Of a stretch of DNA of 64,000 bases, positions 10,409 through 56,129 are shown one piece after another (the first letter of the stretch is position 1; each line of letters begins with the position of its first letter). Made by a program: the position numbers and the translations under genes. This stretch comes from Stegostoma tigrinum (lineage: Eukaryota), in NCBI RefSeq assembly GCF_030684315.1, contig NC_081361.1, positions 41,461,045 to 41,525,044 on the forward strand, written 5' to 3'. The notes beneath the pieces were generated by a model. That model was not told the DNA's origin and did no database searches. It worked only from the letters and a program-made list of their open reading frames with translations.

Positions 10409-10638
10409 CAGATATGATGGGAACTGCAGATGCTGGCGAATCCGAGATAACAAAGTGTGAAGCTGAATGAACACAGCAGGCCAAGCAGCATCTTAGGAGG
10501 ACAAAAGCTGACGTTTCGGGCCTAGCCCCTTCATCAGAAAACTTATCTGATGAAGGGTCTAGGCCCGAAACGTTAGCTTTTGTCCTCCTAAGATGCTGCT
10601 TGGCCTGCTGTGTTCATCCAGCCCCATATTTTGTTATC
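10409..10638. mobile_element. Fold-back (palindromic) Penelope-derived insertion with two hammerhead-like cores
   Basis: Arms 10445-10538 and 10546-10639; 14-bp TSD TTAAGTTTAGGTAT at 10395-10408 and 10639-10652. Confidence 0.85.
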
Positions 10639-10752
10639 TTAAGTTTAGGTATATAAGTTTTTTTTAAACAATTAGAAGTTCAAACAACAATATCTTTACA
10701 AACTCAATTCTCATAATTCAGGACATGTTTTAAAACGACTACTTTCCTTCAA

Positions 10753-11710
10753 TGATAATGGGAACTGCAGATGCTGGAGAATCCAAGATAATGAAATGTG
10801 AGGCTGGACGAACACAGCAGGCCCAGCAGCATCTCAGGAGCACAAAAGCTGACGTTTCGGGCCTAGACCCTTCATCAGAGAGGGGGATGGGGTTCTGGAA
10901 TAAATAGGGAGAGAGGGGGAGGCGGACCGAAGATGGAGAGAAAAGAAGATGGGTGGAGAGGAGAGTATAGGTGGGGAGGTAGGGAGGGGATAGGTCAGTC
11001 CAGGGAAGACGGACAGGTCAAGGAGTTGGGATGAGGTTAGTAGGTAGGAAATGGAGGTGCGGCTTGGGGTGGGAGGAAGGGATGGGTGAGAGGAAGAACA
11101 GGTTAGGGAGGCAGAGACAGGTTGGACTGGTTTTGGGATGCAGTCGGTGGAGGGGAAGAGCTGGGCTGGTTGTGTGGTGCAGTGGGGGGAGGGGACGAAC
11201 TGGGCTGGTTTTGGGATGCGGTGGGGGGAGGGGAGATTTTGAAGCTGGTGAAGTCCACATTGATACCATTGGGTTGCAGGGTTCCCAAGTGGAATATGAG
11301 TTGCTGTTCCTGCAACCTTCGAGTGGCATCATTGTGGCGCTGCAGGAGGCCCATGATGGACATGTCATCTAAAGAATGGGAGGGGGAGTGGAAATGGTAT
11401 GCGACTGGGAAGTGCAGTTGTTTATTGCGAACCGAGCGGAGGTGTTCTGCAAAGCGGTCCCCAAGCCTCCGCTTGGTTTCCCCAATGTAGAGGAAGCCAC
11501 ACCGGGTACAGTGGATGCAGCATACCACATTGGCAGATGTGCAGGCGAACCTCTGCTTAATGTGGAAAATCATCTTGGGGCCTGGGACAGGGGTGAGAGA
11601 GGAGGTGTGGGGGCAAGTGTAGCATTTCCTGCGGTTGCAGGGGAAGGTGCCGGGTGTGGTGGGGTTGGAGGGCAGTGTGGAGCGAACCAGGGAGTCACGG
11701 AGAGAGTGGT
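10753..11710 (-). mobile_element. Penelope-like retroelement, 5'-truncated, with GIY-YIG endonuclease domain
   Basis: ORF 11103-11573 reads CTSANVV..IHCTRCG.LYIGETKRRLGDRFAEH...LGTLQPNGIN; 11-bp TSD CTTTCCTTCAA at 10742-10752 and 11711-11721. Confidence 0.92.
10851..10878 (-). ncRNA. Minimal hammerhead ribozyme-like core in the Penelope terminal repeat
   Basis: CTGATGA-A-GGG-TCTAGG-CCC-GAAAC-GTC; helix III is only the ACGT palindrome and local helix I is about 2 bp, so activity is unproven. Confidence 0.65.
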
Positions 11711-13239: not shown

Positions 13240-16200
13240 CAGTGAATAAAACAAAACTCCATTTCCTTGGTTCTTTCATCCAGATCATTAATATATAATA
13301 AATAGCTCTGGTCCCAACACTCTCCGCTGCTGAACTCCACCAGTCACTTGTTGCCATTCTGAAAAATCCTCACTTTATCCCTTTATCTGTCTTCTGCCAA
13401 TTAGCCAATACTTTATCCACGCCAATACTTTGCTCCTAACACCATGGGCTTTTATCTCATAGAGTCACAGAGTCATAGAGTCATACAGCACAGAAATAGA
13501 CTCTTCAGTCCATCCTGTCCTTGCTGACCAGGTTCCTCATTATGGCTTTCCAAACTTAAACTAGTCCCATTTGCCAACATTTGGCCCATATCCCTCTAAA
13601 ACCTTCCTAATCATGTACCTGTCCAAATGTCTTTAAAATGTGCATCTACCACATCTTCTGGCAGTTCATTTCACTCACAAACTACCCTCAGTGTGAAAAG
13701 GTTGTCCCTCAGGTCCCTTTGAAATCTTCCCCTCACAACTTCAACCTATGCCTTCTAGTTTTGGACTCCCTACCCTAGGGAAAGGCATTATAAAAGATTT
13801 TATATACCTCTGTAAAGTGGCCCCTCAGCTTCCTCTGCTCCAGTGAAAGAAGTCCCAGCCTGTCCAGCCTCTCCTTATAACTCAAATCCTCCAATCCCAG
13901 TAACATCCTTGTAAATCTTTTCTGCACTCTTTACAGTTTATTAACATAATTCTTTACAGCATGACACCCTGAATTGTATGTAGTACTCCAAAAGTGGCCT
14001 CACCAATGTCCTGCACAGCCACATGACATCCCAACTCCTACGGAGGCATGGGATTGAGAGTGATTTAGCGGTTTGGATCAGAAATTGGCTAGCTGTAAGT
14101 AGACAGTGGGTGGTGGTTGTTGGGAAATGTCCATCGTGGAGTTCAGTTACTAGTGGTGAACCGCAAGGATCTGCTTTGGGGCCACTCTTGTCATTTTTAT
14201 AAATGACCTGGATGAGGGCGCAGAGGATGGGTTAGTAAATTTGCAGATGACACTAAAGTCGGTGGAGTTGTGGATAGTGTGTAAGGATGTTGCAGGTTAC
14301 ACAGGGACATAAGCTGCAGGGCTGGGCTAAGAAGTGGCAAATGGAGTTTAATGCAGAAAGGTGCGAGGTGATGCACTTTGGAAGGAGTAACAGAAATACA
14401 GAGTACTGGGCTAATGGTAAGATTCTTGGTAGTGTGGATGAGCAGAGAGATCTCGGTGTCCATGTGTATAGATCCCTGAAAGTCGCCACCCAGGGTGATA
14501 GGGTTGTTAAGAAGGCGTACGGTGTGTTAGATTTTATTGGTAGAGGGATTGAGTTTCAGAGCCACGAGGTCACGTTGCAGGTGTACAAAACTCTGGTGCG
14601 GCCACACTTGGAGTATTGTGTACTGGTCGCTGCATTATAGGAAGGATGTGGAAGCATTAGAAAGGGTGTACAGGAGGTTTACCAGGAAATTGCCTGGTAA
14701 TGGAGGGAAGGTCTTATGAGGAAAGGCTGAGGGGCTTGAGGCTGTTTTCGTTAGAGAGAAGAAGGTTAAGAGGTGACTTAATAGAGACATACAAGATGAT
14801 CAGAGGATTAGATAGGGTCGACAGTGAGAGCCTTTTTCCCCCGGATGGCGACGGCTAGCACGAGGGGACATAGCTTTAAATTGACGAGTGATAGATATGG
14901 GACAGATGTCAGAGGTAGGTGCTTTACTCAGAGAGTAATAAGGGCGTGGAATGCCCTGCCTGCAACAGTAGTAGACTTGCCAACTTTAAGGGTATTTAAA
15001 TGGACATTGGATTAACACATGGATGATAACGGAATAGTGTAGGTTAGATGGGCTTCAAATTGTTGCACCGACCTGTGAAACCATCGAGGGCCGAAGGGCC
15101 TGTACTGCGCTGTAATGTTCTATGTTCTTGCCTTCATTGGTCAGACCCTTGAGTAAAGTGTGCCAATGTCTTCATCACCACCAAGTCTACCTGTGACACC
15201 ACTTTCAAAGAACTATGTACTTGAACGCCTAGGTCTCTCTATTCATCAGTCCTCCCCAGGGCCCTACCATTAACAGTTTAAGTCCTTCCCCAGACGGTCT
15301 TACCGAAATGCAACACCTATCTAAATTAAACTTCATTCGCCACTCCTTGGCCCATGGACCCATCTGATCAAGATCCTGTTGTACCCTGAGATTACCTCTT
15401 TCACTGCTCAGTATTCCACCAATTTTGGTGTCGTCTACAAACTAACTAACCTTGCCTCCTATATTCTCATGTAGATCATTGTACAAAAAGGACAAACAAT
15501 AGTGGGCCTAGTATTGATCCTTGCAGAACACCGCTAGTTAAAGGCCTCCAGTCTCCGAAACAATCCTTCACCACTACTCTCCGTCTCCCACTGGCAAACC
15601 AACTTGTATCTAATTGGCTATATCTCCCTGGATCCCATCCAATCTAACTTTATTAACCAGTCTATCATGTAGAACTTTGACAAATGCCTTGCTAAAGTCC
15701 ACGTAGACAACATCCACTACTCTGCCTTCATCTATCCTCTTGGTCATGTCCTCAAAAAGCTCAGTTTTGTCAGACACAATTTCCCATGCACAAAGCCATG
15801 CTGGCTATCCCTAATCAGAGGCAGCTTGTCAAAGGCCTATTGATCCAAATAGCTCATGTCCATTGGCTCTCCTTTGTCAAACTTGCTCATTAGTTCTGCA
15901 AAGAGATTTGTCAGGCATGACCTCCCCTTAAGGAAGCCATGCTGACTCAGCACTTCCAAGTACACTCAATCTCATCCATAACAACGGGCTCTATAATCTT
16001 AAAAAAACGACTGAGGTCAGACTAATCGGCATATAGTTTCCAGTCTTCTGCCTCCCTCCCCTCTTAAACAGGGTGTTATATTAATCATTTTCCACTCCTC
16101 TGGCACCCTCCCTGACTCCAATGATTCCTGAAAGATCACCACGAATGCTTTGGTCCAGGTGATTAATCCACCTTCAGGCCTTCCTACATCTCCAGCATCA

Positions 16201-27146: not shown

Positions 27147-27818
27147 GTGATAATGGGAACTGCAGATGCTGGAGAATCCAAGATAATGAAATGTGAGGCT
27201 GGATGAACACAGCAGGCCAAGCAGCATCTCAGGAGCACAAAAGCTGACGTTTCGGGCCTAGACCCTTCAGAGAGGGGGATGGGGTGAGGGTTCTGGAATA
27301 AATAGGATATATTCCGCTTGGGAACCCTGCAGCCCAATGGTATCAATGTGGACGTCACCAGCTTCAAAATCTCCCCCTCCCCCACCGCATCCCAAAACCA
27401 GCCCAGTTCGTCACCTCCCCCCACTGCACCACACAACCAGCCCAGCTCTTCCCCTCCACCCACTGCATCCCAAAACCAGTCCAACCTGTCTCTGCCTCCC
27501 TAACTTGTTCTTCCTCTCACCCATCCCTTCCTCCCACCCCAAGCCACACCTCCATCTCCTACCTACTAACCTCATCCCACCTCCTTGACCTGTCCATCTT
27601 CCCTGGACTGACCTATCCCCTCCTCACCTATACTTTCCTCTCCACCTATCTTCTTTTCTCTTCATCTTCGGTCCGCCTCCCCCTCTCTCCCTATTTATTC
27701 CAGAACCCTCACCCCATCCCCCTCTCTGATGAAGGGTCTAGGCCCGAAACGTCAGCTTTTGTGCTCCTGAGATGCTGCTTGGCCTGCTGTGTTCATCCAG
27801 CCTCACATTTCATTATCT
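27147..27818. mobile_element. Penelope insertion with inverted terminal repeats in the DIO1 3'UTR
   Basis: Minus arm 27147-27307 joined to plus arm 27308-27818 (LGTLQPNGINVD remnant); 15-bp TSD TAGAC(T/C)GTAGGGACA at 27132-27146 and 27819-27833. Confidence 0.9.
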
Positions 27819-28421
27819 TAGACCGTAGGGACATGCTGGTGAAGGAAACTGTTTTACGTCCTGCAGTCTATTCAGGTCCTGAGAGACTGTTATTGAGGGC
27901 TAATTAATATTATAATCTTTTCATAGTTTCGACTGAATTAGAGACAATATTGGGGATGGTGTTGTTCTAAGTTGGATACGGTATTAACACTTATTTACGG
28001 GTAGCCTTTGATACAGAAACAGGTCTTGCAGAATGGGGCCGATAAGAATGGAAAGGTGTAAAGAAACAGTAATAGGTTGGCAGCCTACGAAGGGATGTTT
28101 GATTTAGTTTATCTGTAAGCATAAAATGTACTACAAAAAAAAAACAATTTTATGAATGAATGAAAGGAAACACGGGATAGTAAACAGAGCACTTTATCAA
28201 TAACTTAATTACGAGAATCATGATACAATACCTCACACACCGAATAATTTTTCTTCCATAGTCATATCATCAGATCCCAGTAACCGCTTTAAAACCAAGA
28301 AAATCACTAAATATGGAAGAAACCTTATTTGATTTGCTTGTATTATATCATTCATTTGCACCTGAGTGTGCCAATGAAAGCTATCTCAAGGCTTCCTGCC
28401 AGTAGTGATTCCACCAGTATT

Positions 28422-31169: not shown

Positions 31170-32225
31170 GTATAGATGGTGGGTACGTGGACAGTGCAGA
31201 GAGCTGTTCTTGGTTACAAAGGGACATTGATAGGATGCAGAGCTGGGCTGAGAAATGGTAAATGGAGTTTAACCCTGAAAAATGAGGTGATTCATCTTGG
31301 AAGGACAAACTTGAAAGCAGAATACAGGGTTAACGGAAAGCTTGGAGGAGCAGAGGGATTTTGTGGTTCATGTTCACAGTTCCCTGAAAGCTGCCACCCA
31401 GGTGGATAGAAGATAACGAAATGAGAGGCTGTATGAACACAGCAGGCCCAGCAGCATCTCAGGAGCACAAAAGCTTTTGTGCTCCTGAGATGCTGCTGGG
31501 CCTGCTGTGTTCATCCAGCCTCACATTTCGTTATCTTGGACTCTCCAGCATCTGCAGTTCCCATTATCACCCAGGTGGATAGAGTTGTTTAAAACGCATA
31601 TGTTGTGTTAGCTTTCATTAATAGAAGGGATTGAGTTCAAGAGCCATGAAGTTGTGCTCCAGCTATACAAAACCCTGGTTCGGCCACATCTGGAGTGTTG
31701 TGTCCAGTTCTGGTCGCCTCATTATCGAAAAGATGTGGAAGCATTGGAAAAAGTGCAGAAAAGATTTTCCAGGATGTTGCCTGGAATGGAGGGAAGGCCA
31801 TATGAGGAAAGGTTGAGCGCGCTAGGGCTTTTCTCTTTAGAACAACGAAGGATGAGAGGTGACTTGATAGAGGTGTACAAATTGATCAGAGGCATAGACA
31901 GAGTGGACAACCAGGGACTTTTTCCCTAGTGTGGAGGTAGTCATTACAAGGGGGCATAGTTTTAAAGTGGAGTGGAGGTAGATATACGGGAGTCATTAGA
32001 GGTAGGTACTTTAGTCAGAGAGCGGTTGGGGCATGGAATGCATTATCGGAGAGGGTAGTGCAGTCGGCCTCATTAGGGGCATTTAAGCGGCTACTAGATA
32101 GGCATATGGATAATAGTATAAAGGTAGGGGTGGAGGTTAGATAGACCTTAGAATTAGGGTTAAAGTTCAGCACAACATCATGGGCCGAAAGGCCTGTACA
32201 GTGCTATATTGTTCTATGTTCTATT
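31170..32225 (+). mobile_element. CR1 LINE 3' part, interrupted by a palindromic Penelope insertion
   Basis: [32 protein letters not shown]; (ttctatg)n tail. Confidence 0.9.
31411..31567. mobile_element. 157-bp fold-back Penelope-derived insertion centred on AGCT
   Basis: 63-bp arms about 31473/31474; 16-bp TSD CACCCAGGTGGATAGA at 31395-31410 and 31568-31583. Confidence 0.9.
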
Positions 32226-32916: not shown

Positions 32917-33145
32917 GGAAAAAAAACAAAAGAACTGTGGATGCTGTAAATCAGGAATAAAAACAAAGTTGCTGGGAAATCTCGGCAGGTCTGGCAGCAT
33001 CTGTGAAGAAAAAATTAGAGATAACGTTTCGGGTTCAGTGACCCTTCCTCCGAACTGATGGTGGTTGGGAAAATGTCAGTTTATATGCATATAAACTGAT
33101 ATTTCCCCAGCCACCATCAGTGCTGAGGAAGGATCACCGGACCTG
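32917..33145. mobile_element. Fold-back insertion of a second Penelope-like family
   Basis: Palindrome centred on ATGCAT 33085-33090; CTGAGGA..GAA core variant; 14-bp TSD AACAGATTACATTT at 32903-32916 and 33146-33159. Confidence 0.75.
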
Positions 33146-33751
33146 AACAGATTACATTTAATCTGATTTTGAAAAAGTCGAGGTAAAAGGGTCTGAGTAC
33201 ATTCCGCTGAAAACCATAACAATTGTTAGCAGCAGAATACATTTGGGGAAGTACATGAATAAGAAATGTTTGGAGGGATATGGGCCAAGCGGAGGCAGGT
33301 GGGACTATTTTAGTTTGGGATTGTGGGTGGCATGGACTGGTTGGACCAAGGGGTCTGTTTCCATGCTGTATGACTTTATAAAACGAATAAGGAATCAGTG
33401 TTTCAAGGAACACAGGGCTTTGTTTTATATTTCTTCTCCTGGTTTTCACCTCATGTGCAGTTCAACTCAAAGGGAATCACAGCTAATCTTACACTCACCT
33501 AACATTTACATTTTCCAATTGGTTCAATAATTATTAATTAGTAGGAGCATTCTCTGGGCTTTGTCTCCATAGGTGACTGACTTGCATAAACCAGCTTCAG
33601 TTGGGATGAACTAGCCAGCAGTCTGGGACTGGAACCTGGGGTATTATGGAATTATATGGACTGTAATCATTTACCACCTAGCCTTTGATATACATGAAAA
33701 GATAAAAATTTGATAAGGATTTGCAAACTCAAAAGGTTTTTTTTTAAATAC

Positions 33752-38139: not shown

Positions 38140-38795
38140 GCTGCTGCGCCTGCGCCGGCGCTCCTGCCCTCTTTCCTCTAGTTACGGCTGCGTGGGACTC
38201 ACCCATCCCTCTTGCTGCGCCTGCGCCGGGGCTCCTGCCCTCTTTCCTCTTGTTACGGCTGCGTGGGACTCACCCATCCCTCTTGCTGCGCCTGCGCCGG
38301 GGCTCCTGCCCTCTTTCCTCTTGTTACGGCTGCGTGGGACTCACCCATCCCTCTTGCTGCGCCTGCGCCGGGGCTCCTGCCCTCTTTCCTCTAGTTACGG
38401 CTGCGTGGGACTCACCCATCCCTCTTGCTGCGCCTGCGCCGGGGCTCCTGCCCTCTTTCCTCTTGTTACGGCTGCGTGGGACTCACCCATCCCTCTTGCT
38501 GCGCCTGCGCCGGGGCTCCTGCCCTCTTTCCTCTTGTTACGGCTGCGTGGGACTCACCCATCCCTCTTGCTGCGCCTGCGCCGGGGCTCCTGCCCTCTTT
38601 CCTCTTGTTACGGCTGCGTGGGACTCACCCATCCCTCTTGCTGCGCCTGCGCCGAGGCTGCTGCCCTCTTTCCTCTTGTTACGGCTGCATGGGACTCCCC
38701 CTCCTTCCCTCTTGCTGCGCCAGCGCGGGGCTCCTGCCCTCTTGCCTCTTGTTACGGCTGCGCGAGGCTCCTCCTCTTGTCGCGCTTGCGCCGCC
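38140..38795. repeat. 71-bp GC/CpG-rich minisatellite: 8 near-perfect plus about 2 degenerate units
   Basis: GCTGCGCCTGCGCC starts at 38143, 38214, 38285, 38356, 38427, 38498, 38569 and 38640 (period 71); degenerate copies near 38715 and 38781. Confidence 0.97.
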
Positions 38796-45756: not shown

Positions 45757-48405
45757 ATAGAGCCATGGAAATAGTCTCTTTGGTCCAACCTGTCCATGCC
45801 GACCAAATATCCTAAGTTAAACTAGCCCCATTTGCCAGCAGAGATAATGGGAACTGCAGATGCTGGAGAATCCGGGATAACAAAGTGTGGAGCTGGATGA
45901 ACACAGCAGGCCAAGCAGCATCTTAGGAGCACAAAAGCTGACGTCAGCTTTTGTGCTCCTAAGATGCTGCTTGGCCTGCTGTGTTCATCCAGCTCCACAC
46001 TTTGTTATCTCATTTGCCAGCATTTGGCCCATACCACTCTAAAATCTTTCTATTCACATATCCACCAAGATGCCTTTTAAATGTTGCAATTGTATCAGTG
46101 TCTGCCACTTCCTCTGGCAGCTCATTCCATGCACACACCACTCTGTGTGTGAAAAAGTTGTCCCTTAGGTCCCTTTTGTATCTTTCTCCTCTCACCTTGA
46201 ACCTATTCTCTACAGTTTTGGACACCGTATAAGGACGTCTATAAGGTCACCCCTCAGCCTCTGAAGCTCCATGGAAAATAGCCCCAGCCTAATCAGCCTC
46301 TCCCTTTGGGTCAAACTCTCCAACCCTGGCAACATCCTGGTAAATCTTTTCGGAGCCTTTTTAATTTTCACAACGCCTTTACTATAGCAAGGAGACCAGA
46401 ATTGCGTGCAGTATTCCAGAAGTAGTCTAACCACTGTCCTGTACAGCCACATCATGTCCTCCTAACTCCTGTACTCAAAGAACTGACCAATAAAGGCAAT
46501 AACACGAAACACCTTCTTTACTATCCTGTATCCTTGCCACTCTACTTTCAAGGGACGATGAACCTGCACTTCAAGGCCCCTTTCAGCAACACTTCCCAGG
46601 ACCTTACCATTAAGTGTATAAGTCCTGCCCTGATTTGCCTTTCCAAAATGCAGCACCTCACATTTATCTAAATTAAACTCTGTCTGCCACTCCTGAGTCC
46701 TTGACCTATTTGATCAAGATCCCATTGCACTCTGAGCTAACCTTCTGTCTGTCCACTACACCTCCAATTTTGGTGTCATCTGCAAACTTACTAACCATAC
46801 CTCCTATGTTCACATCCAAATCATTTATATAAATAATGAAAAGCAATGAACCCAGCACCGATCTTTGTGGCACACTGCTGGTCACAGGCCTCCAGTCTGA
46901 AAAGCAACCCTCCACCACTAACCTCTGTTCTACTTTTGAGCCAGTTCTGTATCAAAATGGATAGTTCTCCCTGTATTCCAAACAATCTAACCTTGCTAAC
47001 CAGCATACCATGAGGAATCCTGTCGAACGCCTTACTGAAGTCCATATGTATCACGTCCACTGCTCTGCCCTCATCAATCCTCTTCGTTACTACTTCAGAA
47101 GACTCAATCAAGTTAGTATGACACAATTTCCCATACACAAAGCCAGGTTGACTCTCCCTAATCAGTCCTTGTCTTTCCAAATACATGTAAGTCCTATCCC
47201 TCAGCATTCCCTCCAGCAACATGCCCACCAGTTATGTCAGGCTGACTGGTCTACATTTCCCTGGCCTTTCCTTACCACCTTTCTTAAACAGTGGCACCGC
47301 GTCAACCAACCTCCAATCTTCCAACACCACACCTGTGGCTATTGATGATGCAAGTAACTCAGCAAGGGGCCCAGCAAACACATCCCTAGCTTCCCGTGGA
47401 GTTTTAGAGTGCATCTAATCAGGTCATGGGGATTTTACCCATCTTTTATGCATTTTAAAATGTGCACCACCACCACCACTGCTGTAATATGGACATTTTC
47501 AAGATGTCACTATTTATTTCCCCACGTTCTCTATCGTTCATGTCCTTCTCCACAGTAAACACTGATGCAAAATACTTGCTTAGTATCTCCCCCATCTCCT
47601 GGAGTTCCATACATAGGTAGCATTGATTTTTAAGGGGCCCTAGTTACTCTTCCGTCCTTAATGTATTTATAGAATCCCTTTGGAGTCTTCTTAACCCTAT
47701 TTGCCATAGCTATTGCATGCCCCCCTTTTACCTTCTTGATTTCCCTCTTACTTATACCCGTACCGTCTTTACACTTTTCTAGGGAGTCACTCGATCCCTC
47801 CTGTATGTACCTGACATATGCTTCCTTTTTATTCTTGACCAAAGTCTCAATTTCTCTAGTCATCCAACTTTTTTACACATACTAGCCTTTCCCTTCATCC
47901 TAACAGGAACATACTGTCTCTGAACTCTCATTATCCCATTTTTGAAGGCTTCCCACTTTCCAGCCATCCCTTTACCTGCAAACATCCATCCCGATCAACT
48001 TTTGAAAATTCTCGTCTAATACTGTCAAAATTGGCCTTCCTGTAATTTAGAATTTTAACTTTTAGGTCAGGTCTATTCTTTTCTATCACTATTTTGAAAC
48101 TAAATGGATTATGGTAATTGGCCCCGAAAGTGCTCACCCACATTCACCTCAAGTCACCTGCTCTGCCTGATTTCCCAAGAGTCGGTCAAGTTTTGCACCT
48201 TCTCTAGTAGGTACATCCACATACTGAATCAGAAAATGTTCTTATACATATTTGACAAATTCCTCTCAATCCAAGCCCTTTACACTATGGCAATCACAGT
48301 CAATGTTTGGAAAGTTAAAATCCCTACCATAACCATGCTATTATTCTTACACATACTGAGATCTCCTTGCAAATTTGTTCCTTCATTTTCTGCTGACTAT
48401 TAGGG
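45757..48405 (-). mobile_element. CR1 LINE (endonuclease through RT, decayed) in the intron after the first YIPF1 coding exon
   Basis: PLFKKG.KE.PG..RPVSLT, MDFSKAFD, SKFADDTKIGG and RLRGDLI. Confidence 0.92.
45841..46010. mobile_element. 170-bp fold-back Penelope-derived insertion centred on ACGT
   Basis: About 67-bp arms around 45942/45943; 12-bp TSD CATTTGCCAGCA at 45829-45840 and 46011-46022. Confidence 0.9.
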
Positions 48406-54850: not shown

Positions 54851-56129
54851 GTAAATAGAAAACCCAGGTATTTTCTTCCTTAAATCATGCAGAAATGTGA
54901 TTTAATTGAGGAACAGTAGTTAGACCACACTGCATATGTAATATCAGCATATTATTGGATAATGAGCAATTGCTGTGTCCTTCCAATTCCCCACCTCTAC
55001 AATTCCATTTTAGGGGCAGTACTCAATGGGGACTAAAGACTTGTTTCTTCCAGCAAAGAAGCAGCCTCACACAAGCAGTCAGTGCATTTCCTGATGATTT
55101 CAAAATGTAATTGGTAGAGGCTGAGGAGCTGTTATAAAATCACACACTTAGGAGATGGAGCTTGTTGCATGTGATGAGGTAAAGAACTTTGTTGTGGTAG
55201 TGACAAAATTGATTGCAAAGTTCTTTATCTCACTATATGCATCAAGCTTATCTCCTGCTAAGAGTGTGAGCATATGACAACTCCACAGTCTCTGCCAATT
55301 CCATTTTGAAATCACCATTAGGAAAGTGCACTAACTGGTAGGGTGAGGCTGCTCTGTGCTGGATCAATGGTCTCATGCCCTGTACTGCATGTTTGTCCCA
55401 CTTGTGGCATCTTCACTGTTTCAATGAAAACATTTCTCAGTTCACAAAGAACCTTTGGAATGCTTTACCACCTTCATACTTCGTATAATCGATGTGCTTT
55501 TAAAACCCATCCACTACTTCATGCTTTCTTAATCATTTGCACTGTTTTCCAGTGCTGACAATATCTTGACTCTGGACTTTAGTTTCACACTCGGGATGTC
55601 CCACAGCATGTCAGAGTCAATTCTAAAGACTTGCATTTAGGGTATATCGTGTCTTTTATGAACATCAAACATCTCAAAATGCTTTACGGACCATGAAGCA
55701 CAATCACTGTTGTAATGTAGAGCACATGGCAAACAATCAATTTGTACACTTCAAACTCCAGCAATGTGATATTGACAAAGCACTATGTTGTTGTGATATT
55801 GTTTGAGGGATAGATATTGGACAGGATAGTGGAGTTAACTCCTCTGCTCTTTTAAATACTTTTTGATGTGTGCTTACTGCTGAAATGTAGGGCAATTAAG
55901 GCAGTAATATCTGAATAAGTTTATTGACGTGGTTGGTGGTAATGCTATCTATGTACATATTAATTAAGATAAATAGGATTTGCATTGGTAAATGAATCTA
56001 CAGCTTGAGACCATAAATTTAAGATTATCGTTATAGAGTGTGCTATAAGACATAGAATGTTTTATCAGTGGAAATAGAATCACCAACAGCTTTTAACAGC
56101 GATTTGGATGAATATCTGGAGATGTATGA

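Follow-up and report, generated by a model that had tools for sequence, protein, structure and literature searches.

A 157-nt fold-back insertion of a Penelope-like retrotransposon in Stegostoma tigrinum with its junction at the predicted hammerhead cut site

The window analysed here, a 64,000-nt stretch of the Stegostoma tigrinum genome, contains a 157-nt insert (31411-31567) flanked by two 16-nt target-site duplicates (TSDs), which read CACCCAGGTGGATAGA and are identical at 16 of 16 positions (left, 31395-31410; right, 31568-31583; both + strand). The insertion was received by an older, decayed LINE (31212-32222, + strand), recognised from its translation and from self-BLAST, in which the sequence flanking the insert on either side matches 14295-15128. 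A paralogous copy of this LINE near 14470-14520 aligns across the site and has the target sequence once, with the insert absent. An earlier note on this DNA had described a clean 16-bp TSD inside a CR1 element. The TSD and the position inside an older LINE were both confirmed, but the CR1 label has no library support, with 0 Pfam families matched in the host LINE at 31612-31923. Its translation resembles what we take to be a CR1/L2-type C-terminus.

Element positions are numbered from the predicted hammerhead cut, GAAACGTC/AGCT (the slash marks the cut), with +1 as the A of AGCT just 3' of the cut and -1 as the C before it. The insert is a real fold-back, a small inverted piece of a Penelope-like element (PLE) family with a shape known for PLEs. 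It is made up of an inverted, tail-less arm on the - strand (31411-31475, element +1 to +65 by sequence comparison; 31410 also fits +66) and a tailed arm on the + strand (31472-31567, element +1 to +96), the latter with 97 % identity over 99 nt to 27147-27245 and over 98 nt to 10753-10850. The two arms have in common AGCT (31472-31475), a 4-nt palindromic junction at +1 to +4 after the predicted cut, and the insert length is accounted for as 65 + 96 - 4 = 157 nt. As the earlier note had observed, the palindrome is centred on this motif (AG/CT): 31410-31473 and 31474-31537 are complementary at 62 of 64 positions with no spacer. Both arms read AGCTTTTGTGCTCC from the common AGCT, the sequence that lies 3' of GAAACGTC in core-bearing copies, and nothing 5' of GTC is present in either arm, in keeping with the earlier description of arms that begin right after the predicted cut. 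The insert thus has only the part 3' of the cut, without a ribozyme core or an ORF. The arms are unequal, which had been overlooked: the + arm extends 30-31 nt beyond the inverted arm as a tail (31538-31567, + strand), which matches the 30-40 bp PLE tail described in PMC8557442 and PMC11167929. Variants relative to the copy at 27.7 kb are shared by both arms at +27 and +59, indicating a single source for both; in the other inverted pairs, too, the two arms have variants of their own in common. As DNA, the insert has a predicted fold of -80.7 kcal/mol (z -17.3), equalled by 0 of 200 shuffles. An assembly artefact was considered and excluded: the arms mismatch at two positions, the tail is confined to one of them, the TSD copies match exactly and the paralogous LINE lacks the insert.

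Judged by sequence comparison, the insert is a fragment of a hammerhead-bearing, endonuclease (GIY-YIG)-type Penelope-like retrotransposon. This family has about nine insertions in the window, comprising 13 arms. The longest copy is non-inverted (10753-11710, - strand; TSD 11/11), and its translation and sequence include a GIY-YIG C-terminal coding part, a hammerhead core and a tail. Its peptide is GIY-YIG-like (Pfam PF01541, E 0.027, weaker than the curated cut-off) and has 88 % identity to whale shark and zebra shark proteins. One of these proteins, P0001, passes the PF01541 cut-off, and in the two relatives scanned (P0031 and P0001) RVT_1 is located N-terminal to GIY-YIG. No family copy in the 64-kb window reaches the reverse transcriptase region, and a full-length copy (direct tandem pLTR-ORF-pLTR) is absent from the window. 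Searches of metagenome, viral and prokaryote collections with family patterns from 3' of the cut gave 0 matches.

Four of the nine insertions are inverted head to head, with TSDs of 14-16 nt. In all four the inverted arm ends at +65/66 with the same TTATCT(T) and the partner arm is tailed, while the arm starts vary: +1 and +1 for the insert, -5 and -5 for 45841-46008, -29 and -29 with a 7-nt filler between the arms for 10409-10638 (TSD 14/14), and about -61 and -445 for the asymmetric inversion at 27147-27818 (TSD 15 nt with one mismatch), whose + arm carries an intact core CTGATGA...GAAACGTC at 27726-27753. The fold-back at 45841-46008 has 67-nt arms with 100 % complementarity, a centre at AC/GT (45941-45944) and a TSD of 14 nt with one mismatch. 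It sits in another LINE, and ACGT is the palindrome that forms helix III in a dimeric hammerhead. This sibling retains GTC, which is absent from a 3' cleavage product, indicating that palindromic joining occurs on uncut RNA; the micro-palindrome alternative offered in the earlier note therefore operates in the family. Among the five non-inverted copies in the window, two start at -29 and about -27, with no TSD found for either, and three start far upstream. The insertions at 10409-10638 and 10753-11710 are independent and lie ~100 nt apart, giving a further 95-nt inverted pair (window 10409-10879).

Core-bearing copies have the form CTGATGA-A-GGG...CCC-GAAA-CGTC, and intact cores are found in the window at 10547, 10878, 10537, 27726 and 62143. 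The core agrees with the minimal type I hammerhead described for metazoan PLEs in PMC4209133 and is a predicted ribozyme. It shares with those hammerheads the CUGANGA motif, an extra base before helix II, a G-C first pair, GAAA and a palindromic ACGU (positions 15-16) in place of helix III, and differs in its 3 bp helix II and its 2 bp helix I (as for D. virilis Penelope), which has only two Watson-Crick pairs (U-A and C-G). Rfam gave 0 matches in the whole window, the family hammerhead included. A core scan of metagenome assemblies returned at least 122 loci, from which 99 distinct cores were used for a register test. Helix I pairing of at least 2 bp, between the bases before CUGANGA and those after GAAACGT-N, was present in 75 of the 99 distinct cores among the matches listed, and in four shifted registers of the same cores, again among the matches listed, in 0, 1, 33 and 4 of 99. 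This pairing in related cores supports the predicted cut register GTC/AGCT, as proposed in the earlier note. For a single family RNA, folding predicts CUGAUG/CGUCAG pairing across the cut site, which would be an inactive form. AGCT is one of five four-nt palindromes between -29 and +66; duplex energies for these range from -2.2 to -4.8 kcal/mol, and AGCT (-3.8 kcal/mol) is not singled out. Palindromes elsewhere in the element include ACGT at -5, CTAG at -16, GGCC at -13 and +28, and further AGCT sites upstream at -310 and -394. The window has one zero-spacer fold-back centred at AGCT and one at ACGT, so that both centres lie on the palindromes flanking the cut (-5 and +1) and the other three palindromes are unused (n=2).

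Comparable structures have been described in several systems. An inverted 5'-truncated copy with a 30-40 bp tail at one end is given as typical of PLEs in PMC8557442, while in PMC3846280 the tail is 31 bp long and the inverted junctions of PLEs often hold palindromes, read there as self-priming. Like the endonuclease-bearing PLEs of these two sources (Penelope/Poseidon, Neptune and Nematis), the insert is 5'-truncated and inverted head to head, with a tail on one arm, a junction palindrome, a TSD and a parent with a C-terminal GIY-YIG. Unlike them, it is only 157 nt long and lacks an ORF and a core, and its TSD, at 16 nt, is longer than the 8-10 nt of the rotifer examples. PAc, a Poseidon element of Anolis carolinensis (PMC11167929), likewise has two fixed 3' ends ~30 nt apart downstream of a hammerhead and, like core-bearing copies of the shark family, an ATG ~26 nt 5' of the cut. 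The PAc protein nicks and extends both strands, and the tail is interpreted as the distance between the two reverse transcription starts. PAc was assayed in vitro, whereas the shark family is known here from sequence, and the main text of PMC11167929 has no spectrum of 5' junctions. The HDV-like ribozyme of R2 provides the accepted case of ribozyme-shaped 5' junctions, as a correlation between its cut sites and the genomic 5' junctions is reported (PMC3774820), and snap-back 5' junctions in R2 insertions are reported in PMC11331408, with inversions arising via cDNA self-priming or microhomology. R2 belongs to another element class and has another ribozyme, and its link was made from in vitro cleavage and many junctions as opposed to the one copy here. 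The openly searchable literature, at the level of titles and abstract openings and with subscription papers mostly outside it, gave no paper that sets out to map PLE 5' junctions relative to the hammerhead.

The insert is probably a PLE insertion in which two primed strands were joined head to head via AGCT, a process for which RNA cleavage is unneeded. The endonuclease would have nicked both strands 16 nt apart, as suggested by the TSD, and reverse transcription would have been primed at each nick from fixed starts, at +96/97 for the tailed arm and +65/66 for the tail-less arm. The new strands may then have been joined via the self-complementary AGCT, either after longer cDNAs had annealed and been trimmed or through a fold-back. 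The fixed arm ends are observed, whereas the double priming is inferred from PAc biochemistry. Two primings are preferred because pure snap-back of a single cDNA leaves the stop at +65/66, found in four of four inverted arms, unexplained. On this account it is the 4-nt palindrome starting at the predicted cut site that places the junction at that point.

The 5' ends of other family copies were collected from four assembled runs by comparison with the family copy at 27480-27830: X2 (168,064 contigs, same species), X12 (21,705, another species), X10 (44) and X7 (2,769). Among the rows listed, the leading loose 5' end with long unrelated flanks was at 27725, which is -29. These ends were found in at least 738 contigs of X2 (median 255 nt, agreement 0.37), 194 of X12, 20 of X7 and two of X10, although the X2 counts are lower bounds and part of the -29 rows may come from the edges of alignments to related subfamilies. 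The earlier note had proposed a histogram of 5' truncation points, with a spike at the cut site as the sign of cleavage. For copies with unique flanks this histogram has its leading end at -29 and no end at +1 among the 24 rows listed (822 further rows; four assembled runs). Ends at +1 would number at most 140 in X2, 17 in X12 and five in X7 if the six rows listed per run have the highest counts, the ordering not being stated. Perfect palindromes collapse in de Bruijn contigs, and these counts therefore do not extend to AGCT-centred fold-backs like the insert. Four opposite-strand joints were listed (50 further rows), at -29/+21, -27/+11, -23/+18 and -21/+12, each in 1-5 contigs per run; +1 was not among these four, and perfect palindromes cannot show in such joints. 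The population evidence that could be obtained points to -29 rather than +1. In the X7 run a steeper rise in depth was seen across the cut, to which no weight was given as the depth is per contig and smeared.

The pile of ends at -29 is a by-product worth keeping. It was seen in the four runs and in three of the nine window insertions (27725; also 10538, 10546, 62142 and about 20101). Position -29 is the base before CUGAUGA, where both the ribozyme core and the predicted CUGAUG/CGUCAG hairpin have their 5' edge. Upstream of the core, at 27680-27725, the sense strand has a very high C content (with a correspondingly G-rich cDNA) and includes a splice-acceptor-like pyrimidine tract whose last bases, CAG, lie at about -56. 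Either the C-rich strand or this tract could bear on the -29 pile.

Arm starts were also compared in other animals, using 26 loci with a self-match of which 21 were analysed; L032 was dropped as the same as L014, and L021, L043, L065 and L080 as short, weak or having no inverted partner upstream. Ten of the 21 inverted pairs start from -26 to -44, eight from -64 to -170, one from -15 (with a diverged partner) and one from +18. The remaining pair, L089 (630 nt), has a short arm that starts at +3 by alignment and at +1 by eye, and its join overlaps the other arm via the two complementary helix I strands, which is also microhomology. These loci were selected for a whole core, so copies like the insert cannot occur in the set, and the cluster at -26 to -44 (10 of 21) is partly forced by the selection and is not independent support for -29.

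The earlier note had suggested that the insert is a genomic footprint of cleavage in vivo. Under this explanation, which we consider unlikely, the template was the 3' cleavage product of the hammerhead, both cDNAs ran off its 5'-OH end and their self-complementary AGCT 3' ends annealed untrimmed. Both arms start at precisely +1 without an additional base, the outcome expected of run-off on cut RNA, and this counts against joining without cleavage, as does the use of the two palindromes flanking the cut by the two zero-spacer fold-backs of the window (n=2); the register test (75 of 99 related cores among the matches listed, against 0, 1, 33 and 4 when shifted), the short arm of L089 from +1 and the ribozyme-set 5' junctions of R2 (PMC3774820) are also in its favour. 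However, AGCT occupies +1 to +4, and joining through it yields a start at +1 for both arms with cut and uncut RNA alike. Cleavage and micro-palindrome joining therefore predict the same sequence, and the match between junction and cut site, though exact, has no discriminating power; the proposed footprint is not supported. The ACGT sibling shows such joins from uncut RNA, no pile at +1 was present among the 24 rows listed for the four runs, the L089 join lies on helix I complementarity and is likewise microhomology, and the two-pair helix I and the predicted inactive fold of the single RNA do not favour cutting. Minimal PLE hammerheads are described in PMC4209133 as low in activity and dimer-dependent, with in vivo evidence absent from that account, and in PMC11167929 cleavage is dispensable in vitro: a ribozyme-dead RNA inserted equally well, and the paper reports finding no RNA-seq reads that end at the cut (its Fig. 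S2). Joining at AGCT without cleavage is thus the preferred reading. In vivo cutting and the purpose of PLE hammerheads form a question for which a shark genome with about nine insertions of one family in this 64-kb window could allow junctions to be counted and which a single copy cannot answer.

Two further explanations are improbable. In the somewhat better of these, the junctions would trace a dimeric hammerhead fold rather than the cut, with two RNAs held together via ACGU (helix III) and helix I, and two-ended reverse transcription stopping or switching at helix edges. Short junctions do fall on hammerhead landmarks (+1 at the cut, -5 at the palindromic helix III, -29 at the 5' edge of the core and helix I, and the helix I strands in L089), both arms have one source, and the PAc protein is predicted to be dimeric (PMC11167929). 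Complementarity between RNAs is, however, also microhomology between cDNAs, which gives a simpler reading for each case, and selection for a whole core in part produces the cluster at -26 to -44 in other animals (10 of 21). Folding two cores together also predicts a duplex other than the hammerhead, at -38.0 kcal/mol, whereas a partial dimer drawn by hand with helices II and III alone reaches -10.5 kcal/mol. Least probable by a little is an originally longer inverted insertion whose centre was removed at a later time, through deletion or hairpin resolution at AGCT, as a spacer-less palindrome requires equal removal from both arms, deletions in palindromes usually break symmetry, and the TSD and outer ends are intact. 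Longer inverted siblings are nevertheless present in the window, and microhomology-mediated deletions in PLE copies are reported in PMC3846280. A broader proposal, which is doubtful, is that the short junctions of the family record germ-line hammerhead action: AGCT fold-backs would have cleaved RNA as their source, and junctions at -5, at -29 and on helix I would mark a dimeric hammerhead that pairs templates for two-ended integration. If true, the PLE hammerhead would have a function in vivo, and the inverted-plus-tail structure would be accounted for.

Other repeats were observed in the window. At 32917-33147 lies a fold-back of a second hammerhead-bearing repeat family, with its centre at ATG/CAT ~65 nt upstream of its predicted cut and a TSD of 14 nt; its inverted arm ends ~6 nt before the cut, not downstream of it. 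A decayed 315-nt palindrome (55049-55363) has arms with ~75-85 % complementarity and a MITE-like look, and no similarity to the PLE family was seen. A tandem array at 38142-38795 has a period of ~71 nt, with neighbouring units 95 % identical.
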